The translations under genes and the position numbers were made by a program. Of a stretch of 64,000 nucleotides of DNA, positions 6,104-61,562 are shown piece by piece. Numbering within the stretch: position 1 is the first letter of the stretch; each line of letters opens with the position of its first letter. The notes beneath the pieces were generated by a model that worked only from the letters and a program-made list of their open reading frames with translations, made no database searches and was not told the DNA's origin. The DNA is from Marsupella aquatica (taxonomy: Eukaryota > Plantae > Marchantiophyta). The stretch covers positions 2,359,223 through 2,423,222 of the forward strand of contig OZ316892.1 of the NCBI GenBank assembly GCA_973895155.1, given 5' to 3'.

Positions 6104-6485
6104 TGTGAAGTGTTTCCCTTGTGAAGTGTTTCCCTTCTGTGTTCTGGTCTCGACGTCTTCCCACTTTCACTTCCGTTCTTATCGTAGGGCTTGTTTTTAG
6201 CTCTTTACTCCTTACTGTAAAGTGGCGCGGGTGTAAGGCAGTCTGTTGCCCAACACGTGTTTGAGCTTCCTATGGCGCGCCCGGCTCTTTTCAAACTCGT
6301 TTGAAGGGCAGGAGTGCCTGCACTTAAGCAGTATCCGCGACTGACTCTGGATAGAGCATTCAGTCTTTTACAATGAATCAATCAATGGATGTGAGCGCAA
6401 TGTTTGCACTCTTCCACAGATACTGCGTATGATTTATGAATGTGTCAAAGTGTCTTATGTTTTGCTCTCCAAGCTACAGATCACA
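6104..6485 (+). repeat. 5' LTR of the young copia
   Basis: Starts TGTGAAG (the first 16 bp are tandemly duplicated) and ends GATCACA; near-identical to 10858-11239. Confidence 0.97.
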
Positions 6486-6602
6486 GGTTATGGGCCAGTA
6501 TTAAATCAATCGATCGATCGATCGATAGTCTGTTATAGTCTTCTGTGAACAAACGCACACACTTTTGTCTACTTCGTGTTCTGCTCTATCACAATTACAG
6601 TC

Positions 6603-10835: not shown

Positions 10836-10857
10836 AAGACAGTCGATCCGGGGGGTG

Positions 10858-11239
10858 TGTGAAGTGTTTCCCTTGTGAAGTGTTTCCCTTCTGTGTTCTG
10901 GTCTCGACGTCTTCCCACTTTCACTTCCGTTCTTATCGTAGGGCTTGTTTTTAGCTCTTTACTCCTTACTGTAAAGTGGCGCGGGTGTAAGGCAGTCTGT
11001 TGCCCAACACGTGTTTGAGCTTCCTATGGCGCGCCTGGCTCTTTTCAAACTCGTTTGAAGGGCAGGAGTGCCTGCACTTAAGCAGTATCCGCGACTGACT
11101 CTGGATAGAGCATTCAGTCTTTTACAATGAATCAATCAATGGATGTGAGCGCAATGTTTGCACTCTTCCACAGATACTGCGTATGATTTATGAATGTGTC
11201 AAAGTGTCTTATGTTTTGCTCTCCAAGCTACAGATCACA
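10858..11239 (+). repeat. 3' LTR of the young copia
   Basis: Copy of 6104-6485, followed by the TSD GGTCC. Confidence 0.97.
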
Positions 11240-11599
11240 GGTCCGTTCGTCCATGGCAGGGGTAGAGTGCATATCATAAAGCTAGAGCATGCGTAATTGT
11301 TGCTCATGACCTAAGTCGACAAAGACCTCTAGAGAATGTTGACGCAGAGGATAAGCAGATGTGATTTATTCTACATCTATTCGGTGACTTTCTCATGGTA
11401 GAGCGCTGACGGGGAGAGAAACTTGCCCGTCCCACACTACACCAATGGCACTTAGATTTTGGTTCCATTCGAGGTGCCCCTCTATAGGCCTAGCAGAAGC
11501 GCTTGAAGCACAAAGTCCCTGAATCCAATTTGCTATTGAGCAGGCTCTCTAGCAGTCGATCGACAACCGGAATGCGACATCGTCAGGAGCTAGCGAATT

Positions 11600-28352: not shown

Positions 28353-28567
28353 CTCGGTCCGCTTGGGTTAGTTTTAGTCTCTCTCTCTTTCTTGGTTTTT
28401 AGGGGTTCCCTATTGTTCATTTCTTACTTTTAGTTCCTCTTTCTTGGTGTTTAGTGGTTCCCTTTTGCTCACTTCTTTTTCGATTGGTTTTGTCCACTTG
28501 GGCCCTCTTTTGTTTGTTCATTTGTACTCTGTTTGGTTCCTTTGTATATAAAAAGTGTGTATATTTT
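28353..28567 (+). mobile_element. Solo 3'-UTR fragment (extreme 5' truncation) of the CRE-type non-LTR element at 33475-36056
   Basis: Near-identical to 35846-36056, with the same terminus TTTGTATATAAAAAGTGTGTATATTTT. Confidence 0.92.
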
Positions 28568-33474: not shown

Positions 33475-36056
33475 GAGTCTTCCTCCATGCCCCGCGTTGT
33501 TTTGCTGGTGGCCCCTCCGGCTATGTCTTTGAGCATTTTCGTGATTTATTCCCCCCTGAGGATCCTCAGTTTGGTTTTCCAGTTTTCTTCTCCTTTTGCT
33601 AGTGTATTGCAGCCGGTCGTTTGCCTCCTCCCGTCTCTCGGCTCTTGAGTGCTTCTCGTTTATTGGCCATGGCTAAGTCTTCACCGGGTGTTCGACCAAT
33701 TGCTATTGGGGAGGTTTTTCTTCGTCTTGTGTCTTGCACACTTTCCTCACAGTTTCGCTCTGCATTATCGGATCATCTCTCTCCACATCAGTTTGCAGTT
33801 GGCGTTCCTGCCGGTTGTGAGACAGTTATTGCGGGTATTCGAGCTACATTGGACCTCCACCCTGATTGGGTTGTCCTCCAGGTTGATGTCTCTAACGCTT
33901 TTAATACGGTTTCTCGGGCAGCCATTTTTCGTGCTTTGAGGGCGGCGGATCCAGACATCCAGTCCCTGATCCCCTTTGTCCGTTGTTTTTATGGACTCGA
34001 GGCCCCACTCTTCTATAGTCATCACTCCTCTACAGGTGTGTATACCACTCTTTCCTCTGCAGAAGGTACACGTCAGGGTGACCCTTTGGGTGGGCCTCTT
34101 TTTGCCATTGCCCATTTTACAGCTTTACGGGAAGCTGCCATGGCCCACCCCCAGTGTATCTTCCCCTCCCTTTCAGATGACACCCACATCATTGGTCCTC
34201 CTGCCGCGGTTACTTCTGCCCTCGCCACTCTTTCCACCCATTTGATGGGCCTCGGTTTACGAGTTCAGCCTGTGAAGAGTCGTGCATGGAGTCCAGCTGG
34301 GTTACCCTCTGATCTTGTGCTTCCCCCAGGGTTCTTACGTCCAGCCGATGGTCTTCGGGTCCTTGGCTCCCCAGTCGGTACCGCCTCCTTTTGCTCATCT
34401 TTCATCGTTGACTCTATACAGGCTGCCTTAGCCCATACTCCTATGCTCCCTAAGTTAGCAGATTCTCAGGTAGCATTTGGGATGTTGTTGAGGTGCATCC
34501 ACCCTCGTGCGTCTTATCTGGCTAGGACGCATCCCCCTACCGAGGATCTTTGTCTCCACCTTCGAGCATTTGATGTCTCCATTCGTCAGACCCTGGCCTC
34601 TCTTTTAGGTCCGGGTACGTTGCTCTCATCTCCGTGGCTTCATCGACAACTCAGTCTTCCTATTTCGCAGGGTGGTTTTGGGCTTACTTCCATTGAGAGC
34701 CTTGCACCTTTGGCCTTTTTGGGTGCGTGGGCGGCCGCCTTCTCGTTGTTGGCCGATCGTTTTCTTATTGAGGATCGCCCTTTTTTACTTTCATCTCTCA
34801 TGGAGGTAGAGGAGGGTTCCCTCCCGTTTCAGGTTCATTTGCGCGCAGCAAGGTCCTCCTTACCAGATCCTGTTCGCGCCGCGTTACCTTCTTTCCAGGA
34901 GTTTTTATCCTTGGATCCCGTTCGTCTTCAGGCAGACCTCGCTGGGCGTATGCACACTTTCACCCTTTCCAGCATCCTCTCCGAGGCACCTGACACGGAC
35001 CGAGCTCGGATTCTTTCTTTCGGAGGGAAGGGCGCAGGTGGATGGCTTCAGGCCAATCCAGTCATTCCTCATTTGCGGATGTCTTCAACGGAGTTCTCCA
35101 CAGCCATGCGTCTTCGTCTGGGGCTGCCCCACCCACTTCTTGCAGGTTTACCTCCTTCTTGCACTTGTGGGAAGCCTTGTGATGCCACAGGTGTCCATCT
35201 TCTTCGGTGCAGTTTGGGAGGTGAAACCATTATTGTTCACGACGCTGTGCGAGATGCGACTGCTCAGGTTCTCTTTGGCTCTTTGGTATGCGTGCAGCGG
35301 GAGGTGGTACTCGAGTTACCTGGTCCTCCATCACAGCGGTTACGGGTGGATCTTACCATGGTCCGTGAGGGTCAACGTACTTTGGCAGATGTTGTGGTGG
35401 CAAACCCATTGCGCCAAGACATCATTGGGACAGCGGCAACTACGGCAGGGGCAGCAACGTCACGTGCGGCAACAACAAAGGAGGCCAAATATGCTGCACG
35501 AGCTTCATCCGACAGCTTCCTCCCCCTTGCTGTGGAGCTATTTGGGCGTCTTCATCCTCAGTTTGATGGGCTTCTTCGGCAAGCTGCCCGGGATGTTCAT
35601 GGCCAAATGGGTCCCACCGGACCCCGCTTTCTATTTTGACCACGCACTTTCGCCAACGCATTTCAGTCACCTTACAGCGTGCTCAAGCTCGGGCCATCTA
35701 TCGTCGATCTCTTACAGTGGGTGCTAGTGTGCCTCCGCAGCGGCTAGCTCCCCTTGAGGATGTTCCAATCCCACTTGCCGATCTAGTTTTGACTCTTGAT
35801 GTGGACCATTAGCTTTTTGCCACAATCGGTAGGAATGATGAGGACCTCGGTCCGCTTGGGTTAGTTTTAGTCTCTCTTTCTTGGTTTTTAGGGGTTCCCT
35901 ATTGTTCATTTCTTACTTTTAGTTCCTCTTTCTTGGTGTTTAGTGGTTCCCTTTTGCTCACTTCTTTTTCGATTGGTTTTGTCCACTTGGGCCCTCTTTT
36001 GTTTGTTCATTTGTACTCTCTTTGGTCCCTTTGTATATAAAAAGTGTGTATATTTT
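33475..36056 (+). mobile_element. 5'-truncated non-LTR retrotransposon with RT and C-terminal restriction-like endonuclease (CRE-clade-like)
   Basis: AGGPSG region 0, VRPIAIGE, VDVSNAFNTVSR, GTRQGDPLGG, catalytic SLSDD, zinc knuckle CTCG...HLLRC, HDAVRD, RVD...LADV...KEAKY...PLAVELFG; T-rich 3' UTR; no LTRs. Confidence 0.9.
33503..35812 (+). pseudogene. Disrupted RT-REL ORF of the CRE-like element
   Basis: In-frame TAG at 33600-33602. Frameshift at the C4 run 35622-35625, after which FRQRISVTLQRAQARAI...DVDH* continues to TAG 35812. Confidence 0.85.
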
Positions 36057-41692: not shown

Positions 41693-44600
41693 TCAATTCT
41701 TGGCAGCCAAAAGATCCGAGACCTGATTTGTGTAGAAATCAGGCTGGATTAAATTTTCTGGGCTTTGCAAAGTCGTCAAGTCCGTCACTCCTGCAACAAC
41801 CCATGAACCACAACCTCTCAACACTTTTCACACAAACTACAGAAAAGGAGTCACATGTCAATCGGAGGCCACGTTTACCTGAGAGAACCAGGAGAGTTTT
41901 ACATCCACCGTTCTGACCAAATAGAATGTCGGTGTCTAGCCTGTCTCCCACCATGCATATCTGTGTCTTGCTGATTTGGAATCTGTTACAAAAGTCATTG
42001 TGAGCACATTAGTGCAAAGTTACGCTTCTGCACGTAAAGGGACTGAGTGACAGCAAAAGCTTTGAGAAACAATATAATGAAAGCGAGTGGTTCTTGAAAT
42101 TACTGATTACATCATACATTCTCATACCCAAAACTGCCATTCTCGAAATTACGATCAATCATGGTAGGTATTGGGAACTGTCGAGAGAAGTCAATCTAGT
42201 GTAGTTCTATGGACTTACTTGTTTGCAATATAGTCCATCATGAACGTTGAGGGCTTTCCAACCACAGTTGGCTCCCTGTTTGAGGAAACTTTCACGGCGC
42301 CAACCATCGTCCCTCCGGCTGGCCACTGTTGTGTCTCTGAAACGTTAGATACGCTGTCGAGGTTGGTGGCGATAAACAGACAACCAGGGTTCTTTAAACA
42401 AAGGGTTGCATATCTGGTGCACGAAAACAAACACAGTGAATAGGAGCTGTAAAGGGAAAACACAATACAAGATGCAAGTCTGGCACGGACACAAAGACAC
42501 GTAATTGAATTCCATTAACCGGACCACAAATTGCATAAAGTCAAGCTGTCACGAAGAGTTTGACGACAATAAATCAAACACGAGCTCAACTTCCTTCTGT
42601 TGCCTGGACAGAGTTCCAATAAAAATATTCTAGTTTCATTCCTTCATGAAAACCTCTACCGACATTGTTCAGGTAATAAAACCCTTGATTAAACAAAATC
42701 ACAGGATCCTGACTGGTAAGCAATGTGAAGGATACCCTACAGTGAAGGATACTACAGTGGCTGTCTGTTGATGATAGCAATTAAAATAGCCAGAATCCGT
42801 CCAGAGATGCAGTTTCCTCCCACTCAAGTTTGGTTTTCATACGACCATCATTTCCAGCACGAAAGAGAGGGTGAATTGTGATGTTTGCAGAAAACAGTGA
42901 CTGCAGCAAAATCCAGGAGAGGATGGTCATTTTGAATATTGCCCTGAGGACATAGAAAATAATCAAATGCTTCAGAGCCCCTTTGGCTGGAGAACGAAGA
43001 AGTTTGGTGGAAATCTCGCACATGGATGCGGTTTTAACAATACTTACGTTAGCTTGTAATAGTTGATATTTCGATCAAACCCAACAACGACAGCACCAAC
43101 CTGCTTGAAAAGCTTTTGTCAGTGAATACTGCCCTTGGTAATGGATGATGCAGTAACGATCCAAAAGATTCATGACTCATCTACACAAGAGCACGACTAA
43201 ATTCATCATGCCGATCTAAATGCAATATGGCCATATGAAGCACTCAGCCTCATGGTTTAAGCCTAACACCATAGTGAATTTGGCCTAGGTTCAAGCCTTT
43301 CATGTGCAGCTAGACTAGCTGTAGTAAGCTTGTTGCCTGGGTTACAGAAAATACTCAAAATATCCTTAAATGTAGTGAACAGACTTACATCGTGATCATA
43401 ATCTAAATCCTTAGTAGCTCCAGCGCCTATCTTCTTCTCGCCGTCCTCCTGTCAAAAAACAGAGATGCAATAAACAGCCAACCTTCCTCCCTCTCAGGAA
43501 ACGAGCAGGCTGGGGACCAATACTGAAAACATTTTCTGCTAGTTGCTTTGAGCACTGACTTGTTACGAATCTGAAAATGTTCTCAGAAGTGTCTGGAGAA
43601 TTTTCATTACCGGTCCACCAAGGTACCGTATGCCAGCTTGTTGGAGTTCCTTCTGTATTCCTTCCTCACCGACAACATAAACCTGGTGATGCAACAGCGG
43701 TCTACGTCTATGAATATAGCGAAGAGCACAATTTGTATATGAAAATGGGTAGTATAACAGGAACTTCATGATCTACATGCACCGAACGTGAGCTATCAAA
43801 TGTTTCCAACAGCTCTCGCTGCTCTCTAGACGAACAAGAAGAACAGAGGGCACAGGGGGGCAGATAGTTCGCCTCCACCTTCTTGTTTGCAGGGAAGTTG
43901 ACGGAGGTCAAGTAACCTGCGGCAGCAAAGGAGGAGGAAAAGATCTCTTCCTGCACATGAGACAGTTAGTATAGTTGAGACATCTGAGAAAACAGATTAT
44001 AACTCTTAGAATATGAAATAAAGATTCTGGTACCGTAACCCCAAAATTAAGGAAACATTGACATGTAGTGCAAATGGTTTAGTTAATAAACTCACTTCAT
44101 TTGCTTCTAGCCCCATCCTCTCGAACTGCTGGTGTAACATCTTCCTCGATTTTGTGGAGTTGTTGGTCACAAAGATAAGTTTCTTGCCCTTCCTATCACA
44201 AAACGTATGTGTGGCGCATTCAAACTATCAGAAGCATGACGTTCCATATGCTGCAAAATCCACAGTAGGCCCGACAAGAAAGGAGCGAAAATAAATCACC
44301 AATGTAAACCATGCCGTCTGTGTACTGACCGAGGCTCTCAGCAGGGCTAGAGTTTCCGGAACTCCATCTATAAGCTTTCCACCCTTCCATATAACACCTG
44401 CACCAAGAGAGCGGCACCTAACTATGACCGTCAATTTTATTTTTAGAGCTGACAAACACTACTCTACCATTAATTATGTTTGAATTTGAAAAACATTGTA
44501 CGCTATGACGTACAGGCTCATCAGGAAGACAGATAATCCACAATCTAACGGAAGATTCTATCAGTAATACCGGTAATTCATGGACTCAGGCCGAAATTAT

Positions 44601-45157
44601 ATGGGTTTTTTAGTTATATAATTGAATTGGTGATTGGGTATTGACATCCTGATTTTTAAAGGATGAAATGAGACTGAAAAAGACTACTGTTATTCAGGAG
44701 ACTTACCATCAAGATCGAACATGAAGGTCTTGATGTCGGCCATTAGTTTAGCAGCATCTGTTAAGAAGGAGGCGGCTTTCGTTTCTGCACATAGTAGCCA
44801 CTCCGCACTTTAGGAAATCATATTGGCTGCAGATCTAGTTCAGGCCATCATGCACACCTGCAATGCTCAATGACTGATCAACATCATTCAGCTTCACAGA
44901 TAGAGACTCTAAAGGGAAAGGTTACAGAAAAACATACCAATAGTGCCCGTCGCAGAAGTCATTGCTCTACGCAGGAAAGCAAATGGTGGAAAGCTAGCTG
45001 AGGTGTACGATCCCAAAGCGCCAGTTGTTGTCCTGCTCCACGACAATGAGTTTTCAGACGATGGGTAAACTCGGCTGCACAAGGTGCTCTTCCAGTGAGA
45101 GAACTCAATCGTACTTAATACAAGTCTGAATGAATCCTTACACACACGAATGCACAT
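41693..45157 (-). CDS. PGLP: Phosphoglycolate phosphatase (HAD class IIA) with putative organellar transit peptide; multi-exon
   Basis: Spliced exons give FMFDLDGVIWKG...LIDGVPETL, FVTNNSTKSR, EEIFSSSFAAA, VYVVGEEGI, VGAVVVGFDR, FIATNLD, VVGKPSTFMMDY, MVGDRLDTDILFGQNGGCKTLLVLSG and PDFYTNQVSDLL; TGA at 41695-41693. The start at 45157 is tentative. Confidence 0.93.
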
Positions 45158-46049
45158 CTGAATTTCTCCAGCCTGTTTCGATTCACTGATCCTAAGCTGA
45201 AGTCAGGTAATTTCATCAACGGGATCAGCAATTTCTTCAATTTGCTTAGTTGGGTGTTGAAGCAGATGGGAAATTCGAAGGATTCGAGGGATTCCAACAT
45301 GCAGGAGGGGGATTTCTTTTCGAAAAGCTCAAAATATCTCATTGGTGGCCGATTATTGGACCAGGTCAGGGCACATTTTCCCGCGCAGGGTGTGTGCCCT
45401 GGATCTGATGGCCAACGTACCGACGTGACCTTACTCAGGTTGTCTAAACTCGCCTCCGGTTACAAAAAACTAACCCCACAACCTGACCAGAGCAAATATC
45501 AGCTTCACTCAGGTTTTATAAGGGGATCATCTACCATGTGGCAAGGCACTATTGGCCCAAAACATGATGAGTCAAGCAGGCCCAGGTTTGTTTTTGAAAC
45601 AGGCCGGCGAAGAAAGAGCCGGGCGCAAAAATGGAAGGCCGGGAAGGAGTGGGTGGCTCTGTCATTGGGCCTGTGTTTGCTCAACACGAAGGCAGGGAGG
45701 GAGCCAGGGTGGGGCCTAGCCTTGCAAAATGTAAGGGAGCCGGCCCTGTACTCCCACATTTTTCATAATTGGAATGAGCCGGCCAGGGGTTAGGGCATTA
45801 CCAGCCAGGGTTCTGTGGGGGCAATAGTTTCTTGCCACCTGGCAGAAAATTAATGCAAATGACCTCGGGTTAAACCACCACTCGGGTATAAAGGCCCCCA
45901 CCAGGCTGCCCGTGTGTACGGGCCACTCTGCCCAGGTCAGGCAGAGTGTCGGGTGCCCTGGCATCACCCGGAGCTCACAGGGCCCAGCATCGCTCCCCCC
46001 TCCCCGTAGCCCCCCTCCCAGCCCTAGCACTTGGGCAACAGCGGCCGCT

Positions 46050-46640
46050 GCTGCAAGGAGCCAAGACTGGCTGGCTGCCATAGCCAGCTGCGAGCACCAA
46101 CCTCGCTGCTACGAGATGCTGCTCGACTTGCTCGCCTCCTGCTCGACTTGCTCGCCTCCTGATTGCTGACATGCTGCCTCCGCTCCAAGCTCCCAAGATT
46201 TCGTGGCTGCCATAGCCAGCTGCTCGCCTTCTCCTCGACCTGCTGCCAACCTCGCTCCCGACATCGTTGCTGCTCGACCTCGCTGCTGCCCGACCTCGCT
46301 GCTACTCACCTGTTGCTCACCTGTTGCTCGACTCGCTGCCACCGCTTTGAGCTCCCAAGAGTTCGTTTCCACCATAGCCAGCTGCTCGCCTGCTGCTTGA
46401 CTTGATGCCAACCTCGTCGCTCCCCTACTCCTCGCCTGCCTCTTGCTTGACTCGCTGCCAACCTCACTACTTGCCAGCTGCTGAACTTGCTCGCTTGCTG
46501 CTCGCCTGTCCCAACCTTGTTGCTGCTCCAACCTCGATCGTTGCTGCTCCGACCTCGTTGCTGCTCCCGACCTCGTTGCCATAGCATGGGGAAAGAAAGC
46601 TACTGTCGTTGCCAAGCTCGCCTTGTTGCCATAGCTTCTT
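46050..46640. repeat. Low-complexity GCT/CTC-rich degenerate minisatellite
   Basis: Recurring CCATAGCCAGCTGC, AACCTCGCT and CTCGCC units. Confidence 0.75.
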
Positions 46641-47388
46641 GTTTGCTCATCGTTTTACGACTTCATTTCTCCTCATTGTTAGGTCTCAATTTCTCCTGAT
46701 CACATCGGCTCAAATCGTGCAAAGAAGTGTTGCTGTGTTTTGCCCTTCAGCTCGACTGGAAGTTGCAAAACCTGTGCTGCCGTTTGTGAGCCTTGCTTGT
46801 GTTCATTCGGATCTATTGTGGCCTGGGTGGAGTTCCCTTGTCAGCATAGACGACATTTGTAACGGCAAGCCCATGAACCATCCAACGCACAATAGTCGAC
46901 ACAGAGAGATACGTGGTTCACCTCCACATGAGGCTACGTCCACGGGAACACACAAGAGCTTTATTGCACTCTAGGCCGACCGGCCATACCAAGCATCCAC
47001 AGCACAAGCTCTCCCTATCTCTCAACTAGCTCCGTAACAATGAGCCTAAGTTCCACCAGGGTCTGGCATCAGCCCTGGCTACATACACAACAGCACTACC
47101 GCTAACAATAGCTAAGTCCTAACCCGAGTTAGCCTAACTATAGTTAGCTCATGAGTCACAAGACTAGAGCAATATCTAACAAACTCCCCCTTGACTCTTG
47201 TCTTGGGGACTAGACTAAATGCTACCATATGGAATCCTCAGCGGGAAGTTCTAGACAATCACCAAACCAGGTCTCCCCCTAAAAACCACAAGGGTTAACT
47301 AAGGGTTAACTAAAACTAAGCCGTAGCCAAACAGGAATGAGTAATCCATATACAAATAGTCACACATTGCTACATAACTCTACTTGCA

Positions 47389-50300
47389 CTACAACTGCAA
47401 AACCTGCAAAGTAGCACGGTGTCTTGAGAAACTCTCCAAAGGAATCACTTTGATAAAGGCATCAGCGGGATTGAGCTTTCCATCAATCTTGACTAGCCCA
47501 AAAGTTTTATCAGACACTGCTTGCCTGATAAAATGGTACTTGATATCAATGTGCTTCACCCTACTATCTATCACCTGGTTAGCAGCCAAGTGAAGAGCAC
47601 TCTGACTATCAAAGTTTAGAGTCATTTTGCCATGCTCTAAACCCATCTCCGCGATCAACTTATCCAACCAAATTGCTTCCTTTGTAGCTTTTGCTGCTGC
47701 AACATACTCTGCTTCTGTAGTAGACTGAGAAATGCACTTCTGCAAGGTAGATTTCCAACTGATACATCCTCCTCCAAGAGTGTATACAAACCCAATTGTA
47801 GACCTCCTTGTATCCAGACAGCCTCCATAGTCAGAATCTACATAACCAACTAACGTTCTATCTGATATGTTATCAAATAGTAATCCATAGTCCTGTGTTC
47901 CCTTCACATACCTGAGAATCCATTTCACAGCTTCCCAATGTACCTTCCCTGGATTTGACATGAATCTACTAACCTTGCCCATCGCTAGGGCCAAGTCAGG
48001 CCTAGTACAAGTCATCAAATACATCAGACTGCCTACTGCCTTCTCATGAGGAATCTTAGCCATCAGACCTTTCTCCACAGCATCCGTAGGAGAGAAAGCC
48101 GATGATAACTTGAAATGTGAAGCTAAAGGAATACTCATTGGCTTACAGTTCTCCATGTTGAATCGTGCAAGTATTTTCCTCACATACTGGCCTTGACTCA
48201 AGCACAATTGTCCAGTATCAGAGTTCCTAACAATCTCCATCCCTAAGATCCTCTTGGCCTTACCAAGATCCTTCATCCTGAATTCAGCACTCAATTTCGC
48301 CTTGAGACTGTCAACCTCAGATTGATCTTTAGCCACAATCAACATGTCATCCACATAGATCACCAGAATGATGAAACCAAATACATCATTCTTGACTGAT
48401 TTCGTATACACACAAGGATCATACACCATCCTTGTAAAACCTTGAGCAAGCATGAAATCATCAAACCGCTTGTTCCACTGTCTGGGAGATTGCTTCAATC
48501 CATACAAGGACTTGAGCAATCTGCAAACTAAGTTCTCTTGGCCCTTCTTCATAAAGCCTAGTGGCTGTCTCATGAAGATCAACTCTTCCAAGTTGCCATA
48601 GAGAAAAGCAGTAACAACACCCATCTGATCCATCACCAGATTAAAAAACACAACAAGCTGACACAAGATCCGAATTGTGGAATACTTAGCCACCTGTGAA
48701 AAGACCTCATTGTAATCCACTCCTTTCTCCTGAGTGAATCCCTTGGTAACAAGCCTTGCCTTGTAGATCTTAATTATCTCCACCCTCTGAAGGATTGTCC
48801 TTAAACTTGTAAATCCACTTGCTGTCCACCACTTGTTGACCTCTTGGAAGCTCCACCAGCTCCCATGTCTTGTTGTCACTCAAAGATTGCAACTCCCTCT
48901 GCATTGCTGCATTCCACTCATGCTTCTGCTCTGAAGCACAAGCCTCATTGTACGAAGAAGGCTCTCCTTATTCCAAGATCAAAGTCATATCATCTTCTTC
49001 AGGTGCAATGTCAATATCATCTAGCTTAGATGAGTCTGCCCATTGACCATACCTAATAGGAGCTCTAGTAGAACGACTGAAAGTTCTTCTAGTAGATGAC
49101 TCAGGCTGATCTACTACTGTTGTTGGCTGAATTTGAGGTACCCCAACAACAATCTTCTCCTCTTGTTCCATCACAAGAACCAACTCCAAGCCTGGAGCTT
49201 CTCCATCTCTCCTGTCATGAACATCATCATGACTAATCTCCCCCTCAACCCGATCCGGGATGGGAGATTTCCCCTTGTCAGTATGGGAGTCCTGAGAAAT
49301 CTCCCCCTCCTTTGATGATCTGGACTCATTAAAAGACACATCTCTACTGACAATTAACTTACAGGTTACTGGATCCCATAACCTATAACCCTTCACACCT
49401 TTTTGATAGCCAAGAAAAATGCACTTCTTCGACTTGGACTCCAGCTTGGATCGAAGTTGGGAAGGTATAAGGACATAAGCATCACATCCAAAAATCCTTA
49501 CATGTGAGTAATCTGCTGGACGCCCATACCTCATTTCAAATGGCGTCTTGAATCCAATAGAACAGGATGGAGAAACTTTTACCAAATAAGCTGCAGTGTT
49601 GACAGCTTCAGCCCAAAATTCATGTGGTAAGCATGATTGACTCAACATACTCCTCGAGCGGTCCAATAGTGTTCGGTTGAGTCTCTCAGAAACACCATTC
49701 TACTGAGGAGTATAACTTGTTGTGAGATGGCGGGTAATCCCCTGCTCCTTACAATACGTTCCAAATTCCCCGGAACTGTATTCACCGCCATTATTCGATC
49801 GAAGATATCTCACCTTATTACCAGTCTGATTCTCAACTTGGGCTTTCCACTCCTTAAAAGTGGCAAAAACATCAAACTTATTGTGTAGAAAGTATATCCA
49901 CACATACCTTGAGTAATCGTCTATGAACGTGACATAGTATAACCGTCCAGAATGTGAGGGAGTAGGGGCTGGACCCCACACATCACTATGTACATACTCA
50001 AGTACCTCCTTGCTGGTATGAGTTCCAACTCCGAAGGGTTTCTTGTGCTGTTTCCCTAGCACACAGTGCTCACAAAATTCCAACTTACAAGATTGTAAAT
50101 TAGAAAGTAATCCTTTCTTTTGAAGAATAGCCAAACCTTTTTCACTCATGTGGCCCAAACAGAAGTGCCACAGCCGGACCGTCTCCTCATGAGATAAGGT
50201 TACATTGGCTTGATCATAGACTACACTGCCCTCCAAAATGTATAGATTGCTATGTCTCTTTCCCTTCAATACAACTTTAGTACCAGTTGAAACCTGAAGG

Positions 50301-51674
50301 ACACCATTAGCAAAACTCCACTGATGGCCATTTGCTTCTAAAACTCCAAGTGAAATGAGTTTTTTCATCATGCTGAGAATGTCTCACATTCCTCAACGTT
50401 CTCACAGCACCATCAAACATCTAAAATCTTACAGATCCAAGTCCAACAACTTGACATGGGATTCCATTTCCCATCAACACTGACCCGTTGGAAACCGTGT
50501 AAGAACTGAAAAAATCTCTCCTAGAGCAAATGTGAAAAGTACATGCACTATCTAGAATCCAATCATCACTACCTGGATTTGACACTACGTTGAGAGCATA
50601 ACCTTGACATCACAATATGTCATCATCATCGAGTAAATCTACCTCATGCGAGCTTGATGCCGCGTTAGCAGAGGCAATAGGGACCTTTACTCGACAATCC
50701 CTTTTCATGTGGCCAGGCTTGCCATAATTCCAACATGCAAGAGGCTTCCTCTCTTGCAATTTCCCTCTGGATTTAGATCTCCCCCGTGATGTAGATCTAA
50801 ACCTATTTTGTCCATTAGTGCGATGCGCTGCTCTTCCCCTGTTCACATTGAGCGCAGTGCCACAAAAAGATGCTGTCTGTGATTGACCCAGCTTCTTCTG
50901 AGCATCATCAGACAGTAATGAGCTCACCACCTCATTATACGAAATGGACTTCAGATCTCTGTACAAGAGAACCTGTTTCAAGCCCTGATAAGACGGCGGT
51001 AAGGAGCTTAGCAAAAGCAAGGCCTTATCCTTATCTTCAACTCCTTTTCCTAGGTTTGACAGATCCACCGCAAGACTGTCAAATTCATCCAAGTGATCCT
51101 GCATCTTGCTCCCTTCTTTGAGCCTGAGGCTCATCAAGAGAGACTTCTTGTATAGCCAGTCTGACGCATCTTCCCAGTAGTACTTCTCTCGTAGAGCCTT
51201 GAACAGTGACGCGCAATCTGCATAATCATCCAACTGCTTGATGATGTGCGGCTTGAGATATAGCATCACTACATTGACAGCAATCACCTGCTCCTATCTC
51301 CATTGTCTCACAGAAATCTCCTCCTCTCCATCATACTGCTCTCGCGATGAAAGCAGATGAGCTAAGCCCATTGCACGAAGAACACCCTTCACTTGCTTCT
51401 CCCACAACAAGTAATCAGTACGACCATCGTACTTTTCCACCTCAAACTTCACTCCTCCGAATCTAGCCATCTCCCTCTTCTTTCCAACTACCGACAGCTC
51501 TGGTAGTAACACAGCTTCCTCCACTGCACGCCGCACCGGTGATCGTACCGGTGTCACTAGTTCCTCCTCAAATGGTAGCAGCTCCTCCTCAAACTCTCTG
51601 TCTGATCGTCGCGATCCTGAAGCTCTACCGATGCCAATTCTTCCAGTATCCTCCGAGTCACTCATATGAAACAA
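47389..51674 (-). pseudogene. Fragmented copia gag-pol
   Basis: Pieces KFEVEKYDGRTDYLLW, CWNYGKPGHMKRDC, WILDSA, YVHSDVWGP, KSKKCIFLGY, YKARLVTKG, YVDDML, STTEAEY and KHIDIKYHF are split by stops and frameshifts. Confidence 0.93.
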
Positions 51675-51894
51675 TCACGAGAAAACGTATTTTTTGGAAA
51701 CTTCTCACAAAACTCAAAACTCAACACCGCCGCGTAGCCCACGAAGCTAGGAGTCCAATACTGAAAGCCGAAATCAAAATCCGTTGAGAGGTCACAGACC
51801 GTGGGTCGTGGGTACATGCCTACCCAGACATACCCACATGAGTCACGAACCGTGGGTTGTGGGATATCTTCTCACTCAAAACAAAACCTCATGG

Positions 51895-52115
51895 ACCGTG
51901 GGTCGTGAGCTCAATACTCACTCAAGCCAAGACCTCACCACCTATGGGTTGTGAGCTCACTACTCACTCAAGCCAAGACCTCACCACCTGTGGGTCGTGA
52001 GCTCACTGCTCACTCAAGCCAAGACCTCACCACCTGTGGGTCGTGAGCTCACTGCTCACTCAAGCCAAGACCTCACCACATGTGGGTCGTGAGCTCACTA
52101 CTCACACAAGCCAAG
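51895..52115. repeat. 46-bp tandem repeat (about 5 copies) in the copia 5' leader
   Basis: ACCTGTGGGTCGTGAGCTCACTGCTCACTCAAGCCAAGACCTCACC units are head-to-tail with no spacers. Confidence 0.92.
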
Positions 52116-53645
52116 CGCTAAATACGGCGGAAATTACGGACAAAGTACTATTTCTTAATTTGTCGTTTTCTCTGTGCCCTAAGTCATAGTTGCACCTCGC
52201 CTTTTTGCAATGCCAAATCGCCGTTTCCAACGAGAAAAGTGAACGCCGCCGACCGGAAATGTTGCCGAATTGCACCGGCACAGTCTGCAGCTCCAGCAGA
52301 GTACGAACTTCCACCGCGTCACCTTCACTCCGCGTCAAGTGCCAATCCCGGACTCAAAATGACCGCCTTGTCGCGATCTCTCCATTGAGCCCTAGCACTT
52401 CGCGTTTCTTCCTTCAAGTTGAACGTCACGACGAGTAACCTGGTTCAGGGAAAAACAAGCACCATAGCTTGTCAAAAAACCAGAACTCAACATCCACTTG
52501 TCACGTTTCACTCGGTATTAACTCGGCAGTAACTCAGCTACCGAAACGACCAGCTCGCTTCAACCTTCAACATGAGCAACAACATGCGATACCTACCGCA
52601 CCGCACAACTCACACCGTTGAAAAATGCGAACTTTGGTCTCTCCCCCGAAAACCCGTCGAACACGAATAAAACCTGAACGACGTAAACTTTGATTCCTCC
52701 GCACCACGGATACCGATCAGCGAGTTCTAACCACCGTTAGAAAGCCCTCTCACTAACCTATCCGCTCAGCCACACACATTCAAGTTTCATGCAAAGAAAC
52801 TCTGAATGTACCATCGACAATGAACGCTGGAAAACCTGTCACGAAAAAACCTCGTCACCTCCCAGGCATGCTTTGATACCATTTGTCAGCATAGACAACA
52901 TTCATAACGGCAAGCCCATGAACCATCCAACGCACAATAGTCGACACAGAGAGATGCGTGGTTCACCTCCACATGAGGCTACGTCCACGGGAACACACAA
53001 GAGCTTTACTGCACTCTAGGTCGACCGGCCATACCAAGCATCCACAGCACAAGCTCTCCCTATCTCTCAACTAGCTCCGTAACAATGAGCCTAAGTTCCA
53101 CCAGGGTTTGGCATCAGCCCTGGCTATATACACAACAGCACTACCGCTAACAATAGCTAAGTTCTAACCCGAGTTAGCCTAACTGTAGTTAGCTCATGAG
53201 TCACAAGACTAGAGCAATATCTAACATCCCTTTCAGTATACTACTCAGATTTTGGCTCGAGTTGAGGCTGCGGTTTGGATGCTCTTGTTGTGAGTGTGTG
53301 AGCTTTTTGCCAGAGCTTTGTCCGAGTTTGAGATCACGATTGGTCCTTATCATTCTTTGCTCAAGTTTGTGCTTCCTTTCTTCTGCTATTGCTGCCATTT
53401 GTGTTCATAGAATTTGTGTTCATAGAATTTCAGCATTCCCTCTGTTGTTGCAGCAATTCAATTGTGAGCATTGCAGGTCTTACGGCTGCAATTGGTGTTG
53501 TGGATTTGTGTTCGTTGCTCCTTGGATTTCAGCAGCAAGGTAGTGCAACCAGGAGTTCTGATCTTGGTGCTCGGATTTCGGCTGTGAGGTTTCTCTGAGG
53601 ATTTCATTCCACTGTGTTGCTGCCATTTCAGTTGTTGCAAGTGCT

Positions 53646-54175
53646 GTGAGCTTTTTTGGTGACGATCAGGCTATTTTTGCAGTGACAACAGGGTCTGATT
53701 TCCAATGTACATCCTTTGCTAATGTTGGGCAAGAGCAGCAAGTGACATGTGAATGTGATTGGTTTTGTGTCAGGAAGATGGCGCCGACTAGAAAATTGAG
53801 AGCCATGTTGACTGAAAATGGCAATGGGATCTACAATTTGACCTGGCAGGATCCTAGTCATGTTGAGGGCACTCCACCCACTGTCTGGACTGTCACTGTG
53901 CAGGAGGTCAAGGCTGATTTTCCAGATTTTTGTACTGCAATTACAGAGTGTCACAGTGATCTCAACCCTATAGTCCCAATTGAGCAGCTGATCATGTGCG
54001 CTGCATATAGTTATGTTGAAACTGTCATGAGAAGGAAGAGATACCAAGTCTACACTCACTTGGCCTACGTAGCAGGGTACCCGAGAGAACTAAGTTTCCT
54101 GAACTGGTTGAAGCTTCTGTGAAAGCTACTTGGCATGATGAAGGAGAGGAATTTGTAGGATTCCTTGCTAATTAG
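53646..54175 (+). pseudogene. KolX-like protein (similar to the P2X7 cytoplasmic ballast domain), frameshifted at 54080-54082
   Basis: ...MRRKRYQVYTHLAYVAGY-[fs]-ERTKFPELVEASVKATWHDEGEEFVGFLAN* resembles the motif R..AY......G...R..LP.CV...IR..FP..DG.Y.GF. Confidence 0.6.
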
Positions 54176-55006
54176 GGATAGAGAGACTTTTGCCACACTT
54201 CATGTTTATGTTTCAATGTTTGATATGACTAATAAAGCTGTTTGCAGAATACAACTCCTGCTAGTTGGCAGCATAAGGGGTTCAATTCCCCTTGGGAGTA
54301 CATGTTACAGCAACACAAAAACATATTTGCATGAGAAGCACATTGTTCTATCTTGTTTACATTCTCCCTTGTATATTATCTTTGTTTCTTCCTTCCCATT
54401 GCACTTGTCAAAGTTGGTAGTATATGCTATCTATTGCAACTCTAGTGTGTGAAGTACTGTGCATTCAGACCAAACAACTTTTATCACCAAACACTATTAT
54501 CACCAAACATTGTTTCATGTCCAAACTGCAATATTCCTTGTAATGATGGCTCATTGGAGTCGGCACTCTCAAAATTTCCAATGTTCTTAGCTATCATATG
54601 AGAGTCAAAAGCTCCATCTATAGCTCTTGCCTTGAGTCACATTACTACTGATGTGAGGTGATCATTTTTCTAGTCAGGTCCCGGCCCTCCTCAAGAGAAT
54701 CACCCCTACAACAATGACAACCATTTTAGAGTAAGTTACACAATGACAACCATTTTACAGCAAAATGAAACCTATTTCAATGAACTAATTTTATTGCCTA
54801 TACTCACATGAAGTATGTTAGCCGAGGTCTTTTACGGAGGCCTGGCACCACTCCATAAGTACACTGATAGCTATGTTCACCCCTCCTGCATAAAATCACC
54901 CACAAAATTGTACCTTATAATAATTGTCATCAACATTGATATAGCAATATGCTTACATTGCCACTTGTAAAAAATATTTAGCTCATCTCATTACTTTACC
55001 TTGGTT

Positions 55007-55297
55007 CTAAGATGGAGGTGGCACTCCATAAATACGCTCACTCGTTCGGTCTTTCCAATTAGTGGTCCGGTCCACCAACACTCGGGTTCGACCAGGACGC
55101 TCTCTAATAGCAGTATTCACGGGCGTGCGATGGTAGACCTTCCACACATGTCGGCGGATATTCTCGTTCCAATCAAGGGCAGCACAACACAAGCGAGCCT
55201 CATGAGTAGCCGAGAAATGAATACGCTTGATGACATACTTGCCCATCACAGAGTGATAGGTCTCCGACATGAAGTTCTCCCGAGCCAAGCCCAACCC
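55007..55297 (-). pseudogene. C-terminal fragment of a Kolobok-type DDD/E transposase
   Basis: NFMSETYHSVMGKYVIKRIHFSATHEARLCCAALDWNENIRR matches the T..LE.FHS....YAPKR..F....AR..LAALD.NEN..R segment carrying the catalytic Glu. The upstream coding part is absent. Confidence 0.7.
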
Positions 55298-55679
55298 GGT
55301 GAACAAACACAAAATTACACAAAACAATGCAAAGTCAAAAATGGAGAGGAAGAAAAGGAAGGAGCACTAGACCTCTTGGAGTCCACTTGTGAGTATGACA
55401 CCCCAACCCAGAGTACTTATATTACGAATGTTAGAGTAACTCATACATGAAATGGTGGGGGCAATAGTGCCTTGCCACCTGGCAGACAAACAATGTGGAA
55501 TGATCTTGGGTTAACTATAAGAGATAGATTAAGTCATATATGAAATGGAGTTCAGCCTATAAATAAATTAAATATATAAAATGGGGTCAGCCCAGAAATT
55601 AACGTAGTCTGGGGAAAGTGAATAATAAAGGTCACTTTGGGGGACAAACTTGAAGCCCAGATGGGCCACCAAGTAGGAC

Positions 55680-56050
55680 AAAATGCTCCCCTCGATCCAT
55701 GGGAGGTTTGGACTTATATTTTGATGATTATGAGTATTCAAATAATTTTTAGTTCTTTTTCACTGGCAAGGCAACTATAGAAGGAGGAGACACAAAAAAA
55801 ACACAAGCCCTAATATTTACTATTAATGCAATGAAAATTAATCTGGTAGAATTTACACTTCCTCATTCCATGATAAATAATTCAATCAAAATCGTCAAGA
55901 ACTCACGGTCACTTTGATGGAAATGTAGTTTACCTACTCCTCTATCACATACTCAAAAGGAAAAAAAATATTTGAATTTATAAACTTCCCAATAATGAAA
56001 CTCAAATTTTGGTAAATGTGGTCGATGGGGTTTCAAAACCAACATTATGA
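55680..56050 (+). repeat. Dispersed AT-rich repeat (probable old non-autonomous TE), copy 1
   Basis: Shares GCAAGGCAACTA..AGGAG..ACAAGCCC.AATATTT...GTCACTTTGAT...TTACCTACTCCTCTA with 60910-61350. Confidence 0.7.
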
Positions 56051-57945
56051 TCCCTGGGATCATTTTCTTGGGGGACACGTTAATTAATCCATGGACCCCA
56101 TGTTATCTTAGAGGCAGTTATCTAGAGACTGAAGCCTAGATGGACCTCCAAATCAAAAGAAAAAAAATTCAAAAATGGACAAGTCAATGTTTGACACTTG
56201 AAATAGTTGCCAAACTTACCAAGGCAACCATAATTAACATCAATCGCAAAACCAGCTGCATTGTGAACTACTGTTTAATGTGTGGGTAGCTTAATTGCCC
56301 ACTTCAGCAAAATAGTGCTCGACGGTTTCCTCCACGGTATCGAAGGGATGCTGGATGCACTGAAGTTGCATCAAAAGTAATCACTTTCAATTCTAGACTA
56401 AGAGAGAGAAGTCATCGGTGTCATCAAATTAATAACTTTGCATAATCATTTAAGACAAAAAGTTTCATGGAAACAAATCTTCAATTGTGGAATTTGGAAT
56501 AGATCGAAAGCTAGAGAAAGTTAGAACCTCATGACCACTTTAGTACTTGATAAAATCTCTCAATGTTACACTCATTGGAAAACTAAAGAACATTGGAAAC
56601 TTATAATCTATTTAGAACTCAACTAAATCTATCAATGTTAAGTTCATTAAAAAGCTAAAGAAATTCTAAAATTCATAATCTCCTTAGTACTCGATAAAAT
56701 CTGTCAATTTTAGGTTCATTCTCATGGAAGGGGTAAACATTTCAAGGGTTGTACAACAAAGATTTCTATTCACGTTAGAGACTATGAAAATCATGGGTAA
56801 AATCTATTTTTCAAATTATTTACTCAATTCTTACCAAATGATGACAATGCTGAGCTCATCAGGACCGTCTCTTCAAGATCTTTCTAATGCCATATTAAAC
56901 GTGAGTTTTCATTATGATTTGATTTAGCAATGTCAAATCAAAAATTACTACCGGGAGAATTTTATGTTTTGAATAAAATCAAAATATAAATAAAATAGTT
57001 ATTGGGAGAAGTTTTACCTCAATTTTTTTGTCTTTTGATTTGCATGTCAGTTTTTTTATCATTCTTTTTTATGGCAGGGCATCCTAGTTTTTACAGCAAA
57101 CTTATCACAAACACTAATACAGAAGTTAATTTTATTCAAAAACAAATCTCTTCCTTCCTGTTTGCAGCGTGCCATGATGATGTGACACGCTGTGGAGCCA
57201 GGAATTTTGGAAAGTACCCCTAATGGGGGTCCATAATAAAAAACTCTAGTATTCTTTGGTTGTGTGAGATAATATGATTAAAATTAATAATACTTATTAG
57301 TAGGGTCTCCAATCTTAGAGTAATATTCTCAACGCAATCAAAGCCATGACATTTTCACTTAGTATTAGCGTTTTTCACAAGGGAATCTCTGTGTCGACAG
57401 CTCACATTCGATGATGCATTGATGCACTTACTCTGAACGAATTTTTGCACGGGGTCCAAAGCATCATTCCTTCCTCTGTAGAGCTACTTTCATGGGGACA
57501 CCTCTGCTCATGAACCTGCGATTTCAGAACCAGCGGAGTTTCATTTGCCGTTTTCCGTAGACGAAAAGCTTGATCTGACTCCTCCATCAGCAGCAGAGGC
57601 GCAGATTTCCATAGCATTCGAAGGTAAGCAAGTCTTTCTCGTTCAGCTTATCGTCTGGACGATGAATTGAGGTTTCGGATGGTGAATTTGGGTTTCGAAG
57701 GGATTGTATCGCGTGATCTTGGTAGTCTTGTTGTTGAGCTAAGAGGCGGGAGATAGGCATTATGTAAGGTTTCTCCAGATGGACTGAACGGAGGATTTGA
57801 TTATGCTTCTCATGATCGAATTGTCTGGTTTGGATCAGGCGTTGTGGCTGTGCGAGACCTACTCTTGACTAGGTCTTTTGAAGTTATCGAGAGTTGAAGC
57901 GTGGATACATGATTAGCGCGGCGGAACCTAGTGAACGGTTTCGTT

Positions 57946-59357: not shown

Positions 59358-60909
59358 CATATGGCTTCCGTCTAGTTGGCTTTTCTTGTGACTGCCAGTC
59401 TGAGCAGTTCATGCTAAATGTTTTCCGTCGTGTGAAAATGAATTCTCTGTCAGAAACACTTAAACAAATCAAACAGTCGTCGAATGGGTGGACAGGAAGT
59501 TGAGCTCTGGGGCAAGAAGAAATGCTTTGCCCTTGAGTTATCCCGAGGGAAAACGACAGATGGAATCCAGGACTTGAACAATTTTTAATGCAATGAGATT
59601 CAGTTCATTTCAGTTCAATTAGAGAAAGAAATCGATGAATGAAGGTGGTGAAATTCAACTGGCCAAACATGATCTTCACGTAAGACTTTAGAAGCGACTG
59701 GTATGAAGTAAGAAGCAAGGAAAACAGCAGGCAAAGCAGGTGCAAGGTCCAAGGCTATCATGTCAACTAGTGGACAGGGACGCCCACAAAGAGCATGCAG
59801 ATAGTGACACAGGGGCGTCATGGTGGAGTAGTAAAGAGCAGGCAACACCAGAGTAGGTTCATCGTAACAGTGATTATACAGGTACTCCCTCAAACGACAG
59901 TGCAAGGTATTGATACCAGGAAGCCACGTTGTGATTAGATACTGGGACGAGAGGGATAAGACATAGCTCTGAAGGCGGTTGTGTTATGTGTATCAGCAGT
60001 GTAATTATGGACGAAATGTTTGAGAGCCTCATACATATGTATCTAGTGTACATTTTAGCATGAAAAGCACATGGATGCTATATTTTGGATGAAAGTACAT
60101 GTGTGGCCTCATAAGGTTGCTGACAACTCTTCAGACTGTCTTGGGTGTGGTTTCCTTTCCCCTGTTTTCCAAAACGAAACTCTTGTATGAAGAGACCTAT
60201 GGTAATTGTGTTCTTCGGAGTTGTGGAGGTTGCTGTGTCATTCAGACCTTGGATCACAGCGTAGTAATTCAATTGCATGTTCCAGTTTTTTTTAATTAGA
60301 GGTCTTGTATCTGAAACATTTTCGCTGTCGTATTCACTCACGAGAAATGTACCCCTCAAGGTCGAATAGCCCCTTTGCCCACGCAAAGTTCTGTCATTTT
60401 CATTCTCAAGCTGGGATTTGTTCATGTCTTTGCTGCAGTCTTGTTTCCAAACTCGATAAACAGTTGCAATAACTCAAAAGAGTTGATTGCTTCATCTTTT
60501 AGCATCAAGTTTTCTCCCTACAGAAACTGACTTTTGACCTTTCCTCCCCCACCCTTTCCTCCCTATTTCCCCACTGCCCTGACTGTAGGGACCCCCCCAT
60601 GGCACACGCTGCTCCGAGGGTGAATGGGAACTGTCAGGTCTCCATTGTGGCAATCTCAGGGCGGTAGGATCTTCTGCATTTAATTAGGGTTAGTCATTTA
60701 ACCCATGGCCAGAAAAAGGTGGCAAGTGGTGATATTTGACAAAAAAGTGTCCACATTCACACTTCCCATCCCATCACCCATTAGATTGGCTGGGTTAACG
60801 TGACACATTGTGGGGCTGGTTGTTGGGTCTAGAGTTATAAAAATTATCTATTTATTGTGGTAACAGGGACGGCAGGATGGAAAACAGGATGGACTGCCAT
60901 GTTGGACAC

Positions 60910-61350
60910 AGTGCTCCCATGGACCATATTTGGTGGTGCATCCTAGTGTGGGGTCCATATCTTGACAATTATGATTCCTAAAATGATTTTTAGTTCTGCT
61001 AGTGCAAGGCAACTAGAGGAGGAGTAGACTTGAACAAAAAATACAAGCCCAAATATTTCATGTCAACATAAAGAAAATTGATCTAATGAAATTGAACGCT
61101 TCACATTATAGGATTAAACTCAACCAGAAAAACCAAAACGTAAAGAAAATTGATCTGATGAAATTGAACGCTTCACATTATAGGATTAAACTCAACCAGA
61201 AAAACCAAAACTGCACTGTCACTTTGATAAAAGTGTACCTTACCTACTCCTCTAGCATGTCCCCAAAACTAAAAACTATATCTGAATTCAGGTATATCAA
61301 GTTATTACAATTAAACTAATATTTCATGAAGTGTGGTTCACTGGGGTTTC
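60910..61350 (+). repeat. Dispersed AT-rich repeat, copy 2, with a near-perfect internal 72-bp tandem duplication (61069-61211)
   Basis: Homologous to 55680-56050; TAAAGAAAATTGATCT.ATGAAATTGAACGC...AAAACCAAAAC occurs twice. Confidence 0.75.
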
Positions 61351-61529
61351 AATGACCAATCTACAGTAGTGGTCCATGGGGTCTTCAAATTCAACCATTG
61401 CCGGCTCAAATTTTTTAAAAATAAACAGTTAGCACATAGACATAAAACTAAGACCAATCTTGCTATCCATGGGCCTTCAAAACTCGTTCACCTTGGGAAA
61501 AACAAACATAAACAGTAATAAATAAATAA

Positions 61530-61562
61530 ATCTATGTCTATATCTATATCTATATCTATATG
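61530..61562. repeat. (TATATC)n microsatellite
   Basis: Directly visible. Confidence 0.85.

Follow-up and report, generated by a model that had tools for sequence, protein, structure and literature searches.

A degenerate, probably Kolobok-type DNA transposon with a partly KolX-like second gene in a likely liverwort genome

What left two short coding remnants facing each other, tail to tail, in the 64,000 nucleotides of DNA analysed here (the window)? An earlier note, made from the sequence, had read them as an apparent Kolobok DNA transposon in a land plant, with a transposase gene and a gene for a KolX protein related to the P2X7 ballast domain. Based on our analysis, the feature very probably derives from a cut-and-paste DNA transposon that forms a repeat family, of which it is an internally deleted, non-autonomous copy; the superfamily is likely Kolobok and the host likely a liverwort. 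Both convergent coding remnants are genuine, further copies of the element occur in the same organisms, a copia retrotransposon was inserted into it later and the first two catalytic aspartates have been lost. What remains in this copy is the accessory gene, broken by a frameshift, and the final ~95 codons of the transposase, arranged tail to tail. We regard it as a degenerate member of an apparently undescribed Kolobok-type transposon lineage of green plants. The window contains no N and holds plant-type genes, for example a GH17 plus X8 glucanase and an ABC-2 transporter according to Pfam.

The minus-strand open reading frame lies at 55010-55366 and the plus frames at 53562-54122 and 54020-54175. 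Their stop codons, TAG at 55009-55007 for the minus frame and TAG at 54173-54175 for the plus gene, enclose a spacer of 831 bases (54176..55006) with one AATAAA per strand, at 54231 on the plus strand and at 54795 on the minus strand. Both peptides that had been noticed are present, and the homologues found for each exclude chance. The start of the plus gene has to be moved, from 53646 to the ATG at 53778.

Which enzyme does the minus remnant represent? It occupies 55007..55297 on the minus strand, the codon for the last catalytic glutamate being 55264-55262, and transposase homology ends at about 55288; the upstream part of the protein is absent from the window. As family profiles run in six frames over the whole window gave no other transposase piece above threshold, this copy is unable to make an active enzyme, and with only the C-terminal end of the transposase left the proposal of a non-autonomous derivative is borne out. 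At 35151-35315 there is a weak match in antisense (E 0.34-1), which we attribute to chance. The 95-residue piece matched 2 of 112 candidates, a protein of Calypogeia fissa (69%) and one of Riccia sorocarpa (63%), the E values of these two liverwort matches being 1.4e-35 and 7.5e-26. A profile built from the window piece and the two liverwort proteins retrieved 212 representatives at E<=0.001, 150 of them listed; 30 of these 150 were looked up, the choice being guided by a 100-row tree of the C-terminal piece from which the window row was left out. An organism name was available for 15 of the 30: 8 Riccia, 1 Calypogeia, 2 Chara braunii, 1 Closterium and 2 Branchiostoma, plus 1 cluster common to Pyramimonas and Prorocentrum transcriptomes. 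In this last case (P0031), the 90% cluster mixes entries from both transcriptomes, and one label may be a contaminant. An atlas search with the transposase piece produced weak leads only (integrase-core clusters at 0.90-0.91), and no relative was found among 37 candidate viral contigs.

The longer members of the family were assembled into a 39-row alignment, in which the catalytic core is strongly conserved among the rows that have a residue at the position: the first D in 29/29, the second D in 34/35, the H of the DxWH signature in 34/35 and the last E in 34/37. A finger between DxxH and the last E is equally evident (H548 in 38/38, H553 in 36/38, C556 in 35/37 rows with a residue). Full-length relatives thus carry the DDD/E triad, RNase H fold and C/DxxH motif by which Kolobok is recognised, of which the window copy retains the last E only. 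Pfam detects a SAP domain in 13/39 members, and in relative P0026 it sits at residues 427-461, between DxWH and the finger. The one transposase family of Pfam to exceed its own cut-off is PF20700, 'Mutator-like transposase', which is matched by 12/39 rows at E<=0.1. Against the lancelet protein P0140, the family profile aligns over 373 columns and keeps the triad in register (probability 98.7, E 4.7e-16), and by eye P0140 resembles Repbase Kolobok_16_CGi at 21/32 residues around the first D and at 10/24 before the last E; it can be matched by eye to the cores of Repbase Kolobok_1_MyEd and Kolobok_1_OwFu also. By this indirect route, a profile match to P0140 followed by a by-eye comparison with Repbase, the transposase appears to be homologous to curated Kolobok families. 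A predicted structure of P0026 (pLDDT 79) has its best matches in the P element, ISCth4 and Hermes transposases (E 2e-6 to 4e-5), members of the C/DxxH clan to which Kolobok also belongs according to excerpts of PMC9587614. The Kolobok-type assignment of the earlier note therefore stands: relatives keep D, D, DxWH and E, the profile reaches P0140 and no MULE or hAT family is matched.

The second gene, of 132 codons, extends over 53778..54175 on the plus strand and has a one-base frameshift at 54077-54082. A homologue search limited to 58-186 aa returned no candidate; an alignment query over longer proteins returned two. Two uninterrupted Logan proteins, P0180 and P0181 (165 and 133 aa), match the gene from start codon to stop, across the break, with E values of 4.8e-33 and 1.1e-30 and with 85/130 and 84/131 identities (~65%). 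Part of the depth at 54077-54082, in contigs of 4/4 sequencing runs, has an added base. The contigs with this base, together with the uninterrupted homologues, indicate that this is a real family gene and that the frameshift, correctly placed in the plus frame before, is a one-base loss private to the window copy.

Is the second protein a KolX? Pfam gave no useful match for four window peptides, no direct P2RX7_C match for the window pieces, P0180 or P0181, and no nuclease match for the second gene. The connection comes from a metagenome contig, L003, that has a whole related transposase at 2070-3893 on the plus strand, followed by a convergent gene in the same tail-to-tail arrangement as in the window. 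The last exon of that gene matches P2RX7_C positions 161-191 of 192 at E 0.0008-0.0015, a match that sits below the family cut-off (19.9 vs 23.5 bits), and the liverwort second-gene profile scores 18.8 bits over 51 residues of the spliced L003 gene, the best of 2000 shuffles reaching 6.1. Through L003, the second gene thus seems to be related to KolX, indirectly and no further than its ~50 C-terminal residues. The window protein, P0180 and P0181 all lack the seven zinc-binding cysteines of the KolX ballast fold; they have 3 (scattered), 2 and 6 cysteines, respectively. The proposed KolX/P2X7-ballast link hence survives for the C-terminal part and fails as a direct P2RX7_C match and for the zinc cysteines. 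Co-occurrence of the two genes elsewhere is upheld by the convergent pair in L003, one of four metagenome loci with the transposase; the other three, with 270-700 bases downstream, have no KolX-like convergent gene. L002 may carry another second gene, a cysteine-bearing frame at 1795-2097 on its minus strand that converges on the transposase there and has no Pfam match. A model of the second protein (pLDDT 62, C-terminal part <50) predicts three strands plus helices in the N-terminal part, and fold searches with this low-confidence model gave no hit at E<=0.001, a best Z of 4.8 and no clear ballast match, an outcome that speaks neither for nor against the ballast fold. PDB sequence searches returned no P2X7 chain; rows for formate dehydrogenase (E>=0.14) were taken as chance. 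The leads of an atlas search with the gene were weak and confined to unnamed and fn3 clusters.

How far does the element extend? Not over 53646..55297, as had been assumed, but over ~3.6 kb from roughly 45.5 to 55.5 kb of the window, since it reaches left past a nested copia of 6.4 kb. This Ty1/copia retrotransposon (46839..53226, minus strand; RVT_2, rve and gag matches in Pfam) is separate from the DNA transposon. It has LTRs of 343 bp, identical at 333/343 positions, and is flanked by a 5-bp target duplication at 46834-46838 and 53227-53231. In 4/4 runs, contigs skip the copia and join 46835 to 53228, so that the sequence to its left is part of the same element. This left internal region (45874..46838, plus strand), which is joined to 53227 in other copies, contains a TATA-like box at 45887-45892 and short tandem repeats at 46119-46579 and is likely, from its sequence features, to be a promoter or leader of the second gene.

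The contigs derive from four sequencing runs of two studies, one of which may be the source of the window. As many as 10 different variant contigs overlap at individual sites of the element, and this shows a repeat family. Over the gene region the summed contig depth, which is not a copy number, is 21, 11 and 25 times that of the host flank in runs X1, X2 and X4 (X3, read in part, was left out of this comparison), and depth is unbroken across both genes and the spacer in 4/4 runs. Among the contigs listed, none spans both genes, and no one liverwort contig with the two genes intact was seen. A contig of 9.7 kb crosses from host sequence into the left block with zero differences, placing the element in the plant genome. 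Depth over 55380-55808 comes from one low-depth contig, indicating that other copies differ there, as expected if a deletion took the 5' part of the transposase gene.

The ends of the element are candidates. On the left, a block of ~355 bp (45522..45876; outer boundary approximate; covered by other copies at 45727-45733) has imperfect inverted ends, namely 29-nt arms at 45530-45558 and 45818-45846 that pair in the predicted fold (z -2.0; 2/100 shuffles equally good). The 29-nt motif occurs three times in the window, forward at 45530 and in reverse at 45818 and 55458, and 0 times in 100 shuffles. The first copy (45530..45558, plus) is 90% complementary to 55458-55486. The second copy with its extension (45815..45873, minus) and the third, which with its extension forms the candidate right end (55455..55516, minus; TTAA at 55511-55514; outer boundary approximate), make up a 60-nt direct match of 83% between 45815-45873 and 55455-55514, scoring 77 against a shuffle maximum of 32. 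Similarity halts at GGG-TTAA on both sides, at 45873 and at 55514. The earlier note had expected insertion at TTAA and terminal inverted repeats: the inverted motif near both ends is there, a TTAA target duplication, the 4-bp form typical of classic Kolobok families, was not found and the candidate left end lacks TTAA. In this one old copy, no inverted repeat with a 4-bp duplication rose above controls, two pairs at 10/14 failing to outdo six control zones. ATAA at 45518-45521 and 55517-55520 would suit RR..YY ends, within chance, and no empty site was seen. We consider three readings of the ends. They may be RR..YY ends with an ATAA duplication, the element then running from 45522 to 55516; they may be of piggyBac-like type; or one terminal block may be repeated on both sides, with the right copy mostly deleted. 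GGG-TTAA is the pattern of piggyBac, whose ends are CCC..GGG in TTAA, as against RR..YY of Kolobok, except in the case that the element truly ends 2-3 bases farther outward.

Could the remnants then be part of something other than a Kolobok element? In one scenario, a piggyBac element would account for both the ends and the second gene, and the piece of Kolobok transposase would be a captured or nested fragment. The exact halt of the end similarity at GGG-TTAA would suit it, and piggyBac families with a cysteine-poor KolX C-terminal protein are on record in excerpts of PMC9587614; we nevertheless think it very unlikely, because L003 has the same tail-to-tail pairing with a Kolobok-type transposase, depth runs unbroken over both genes and the spacer, and neither the listing of open reading frames nor Pfam scans of 14 window peptides contain a piggyBac transposase. 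GGG-TTAA occurs twice in direct orientation, a matching left end is absent and the transposase is not of piggyBac type. It is highly improbable, too, that the transposase comes from a Mutator-like or separate C/DxxH lineage merely resembling Kolobok. PF20700 bears the name Mutator-like, one row weakly matches Transposase_mut (E 0.039) and ISCth4 and Hermes are among the matches of the predicted fold, but MULE (PF10551), SWIM, hAT (including its dimerisation domain) and piggyBac are absent from the 17 Pfam families matched at E<=0.1 by the 39 members, P0140, which is the strongest PF20700 member, resembles Repbase Kolobok cores by eye, and a KolX-like partner is a trait of Kolobok0. Hardly any credence is due to the idea that the two remnants are unrelated neighbours, or domesticated host genes, instead of one mobile element. 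The many diverged copies, the private frameshift, the truncated transposase and the recurrence of the gene pairing in a distant eukaryote (L003) all contradict it, even though the element ends are only candidates and homologues are annotated as hypothetical host proteins.

We therefore return to a Kolobok-type element and to its origin. The trees are quick ones, with no bootstrap, long branches and no named fungal rows, and the window row fills 13% of tree columns. In a 42-row tree, the window groups with Calypogeia P0001 and one Logan protein (SH 96), and this group lies inside a set (SH 98) that includes Riccia rows; the rows of Riccia and of Calypogeia are interleaved. A 22-row tree of longer rows unites 7 liverwort, 2 Chara and 1 Closterium sequences with the algal-transcriptome row (SH 96). 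A clade of liverworts and the lancelet group, named for the AU test after the first tree was seen, is rejected (p-AU 0.0005). Sister sequences occur in the freshwater green algae Chara and Closterium, which makes inheritance of the lineage within green plants likely, and long residence there, in preference to recent transfer from animals, is our best reading, though not a proven one. Of the two origins that the earlier note had left side by side, retention fits better and a recent animal source is disfavoured. Horizontal arrival of Kolobok in liverworts from fungi, protists or animals, which concerns the origin only, is unlikely; the range is patchy, with no moss, hornwort or vascular plant among the 15 named relatives, and the trees are devoid of named fungal sequences, but several sublineages are common to Riccia and Calypogeia, the supported group that contains the liverworts also takes in Chara and Closterium, and identity to lancelet sequences is only about 18%. 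Kolobok is already on record in green algae with Kolobok_1_KlNi, which we take to be from Klebsormidium nitens, and Kolobok_1_MicRcc299; these differ in belonging, by eye, to another lineage, in having a CCHC finger after the first D and in not being from land plants.

How would such an element work? DDE cut-and-paste elements are bound at their ends by the transposase, excised and inserted elsewhere. By analogy, both genes of intact family members would be transcribed from the ends inwards, and the two AATAAA signals in the spacer fit such inward, convergent transcription. The DDE transposase of the family would bind to the 29-nt motif repeated at the ends, cut the element out and reinsert it elsewhere. 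The SAP domain within the core likely contributes DNA binding and the small second protein is likely a non-catalytic transposition helper. The window copy would be mobile only with transposase supplied in trans.

In this the element would act like a two-gene Kolobok, by analogy with Kol0/Kolobok0 (type Kolobok-1_XT) as laid out in excerpts of PMC9587614, with which it shares a DxWH DDE transposase, an H..C finger before the last E and a KolX-related second gene. It departs from that system in its land-plant host, in the SAP domain inside the catalytic core, in a second protein with no zinc cysteines and another N-terminal part, and in that no TTAA duplication was found; because the KolX cysteines are absent and the ends unproven, we do not file it as canonical Kol0. 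Kolobok_16_CGi, Kolobok_1_MyEd and Kolobok_1_OwFu (excerpted from Data S5, PMC9587614) and lancelet P0140 share the context of the first D with the window family and likewise have no CCHC finger behind it; they come from animal hosts, unlike the window element, and P0140, while aligning over the whole core by profile, is ~18% identical and lacks the SAP insertion. The piggyBac-2_GrCh_2p and piggyBac-14_PI_2p proteins (excerpted from Data S6, PMC9587614) are likewise cysteine-poor and similar to the KolX C-terminus, and piggyBac-2_GrCh_2p ends in the GF motif by eye, whereas the partner in the window element is a Kolobok-type transposase. A possible likeness exists to KolobokP, for which excerpts of PMC9587614 describe target duplications that are not TTAA-specific: a terminal block with its own inverted ends and an end sequence that recurs directly at the far end. 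In contrast to KolobokP, which is marked by long terminal direct repeats and a His-Me nuclease, there is no such nuclease here, only 60 nt recur, at 83%, and the block is ~355 bp as opposed to 450 or 660. Tentatively, and with considerable doubt, these traits may be combined: a Kolobok lineage passed down green plants from before land plants that continued to amplify in liverworts, with SAP inside the catalytic core, a KolX helper devoid of zinc cysteines, and ends of a composite-like kind (on both sides a terminal unit of 355 bp that has inverted ends itself) that evolved separately from those of KolobokP.

What are the implications of a Kolobok-type element in a liverwort? The view that the superfamily would be notable in a land plant holds, as the titles and abstracts searched contained no characterised land-plant Kolobok; Repbase and Dfam may already hold such families. 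In the excerpts available, Kolobok is named once among minor classified repeats of spinach (PMC6337768), and other angiosperm genome papers among the matches listed mention it once; plant hosts of Kolobok are chlorophyte and red algal only in the excerpts of PMC9587614; a screen of 1007 plant genomes that included Kolobok reports, in the part consulted, recently active clusters only for seven superfamilies, Kolobok not among them (PMC12973397); and an excerpt of PMC7016195 describes the P2X7 ballast domain as not detectable in plants. The element would thus add a DNA-transposon superfamily to the inventory of land plants and mean that plants, too, possess a remote relative of the P2X7 ballast C-terminus. 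A small KolX with no zinc cysteines would be a simple test case for the job of KolX. In the gene sets of Riccia and Calypogeia, transposases of this type are entered as host proteins with no name, and they are therefore likely to be overlooked in repeat libraries and gene counts for liverworts.

The neighbourhood is rich in other repeats. Window positions 6104-11242 hold a copia whose LTRs are 99.7% identical over 385 bp and which has a single uninterrupted frame of 1428 codons, features that point to a very recent insertion. A 678-codon frame with an RVT_1 domain at 33603-35636 is likely a non-LTR retrotransposon, near which direct repeats of 97% lie at 28353-28567 and 35846-36056. Directly to the right of the element, a second repeat family is seen at 55660-56190 and 60888-61537 (~70-75% alike), and contig depth is far higher from about 55780 on. 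On the left, a divergent host gene on the minus strand (about 42300-45100) begins a few hundred bases from the element's left end; presumably it resembles a plastid phosphoglycolate phosphatase.
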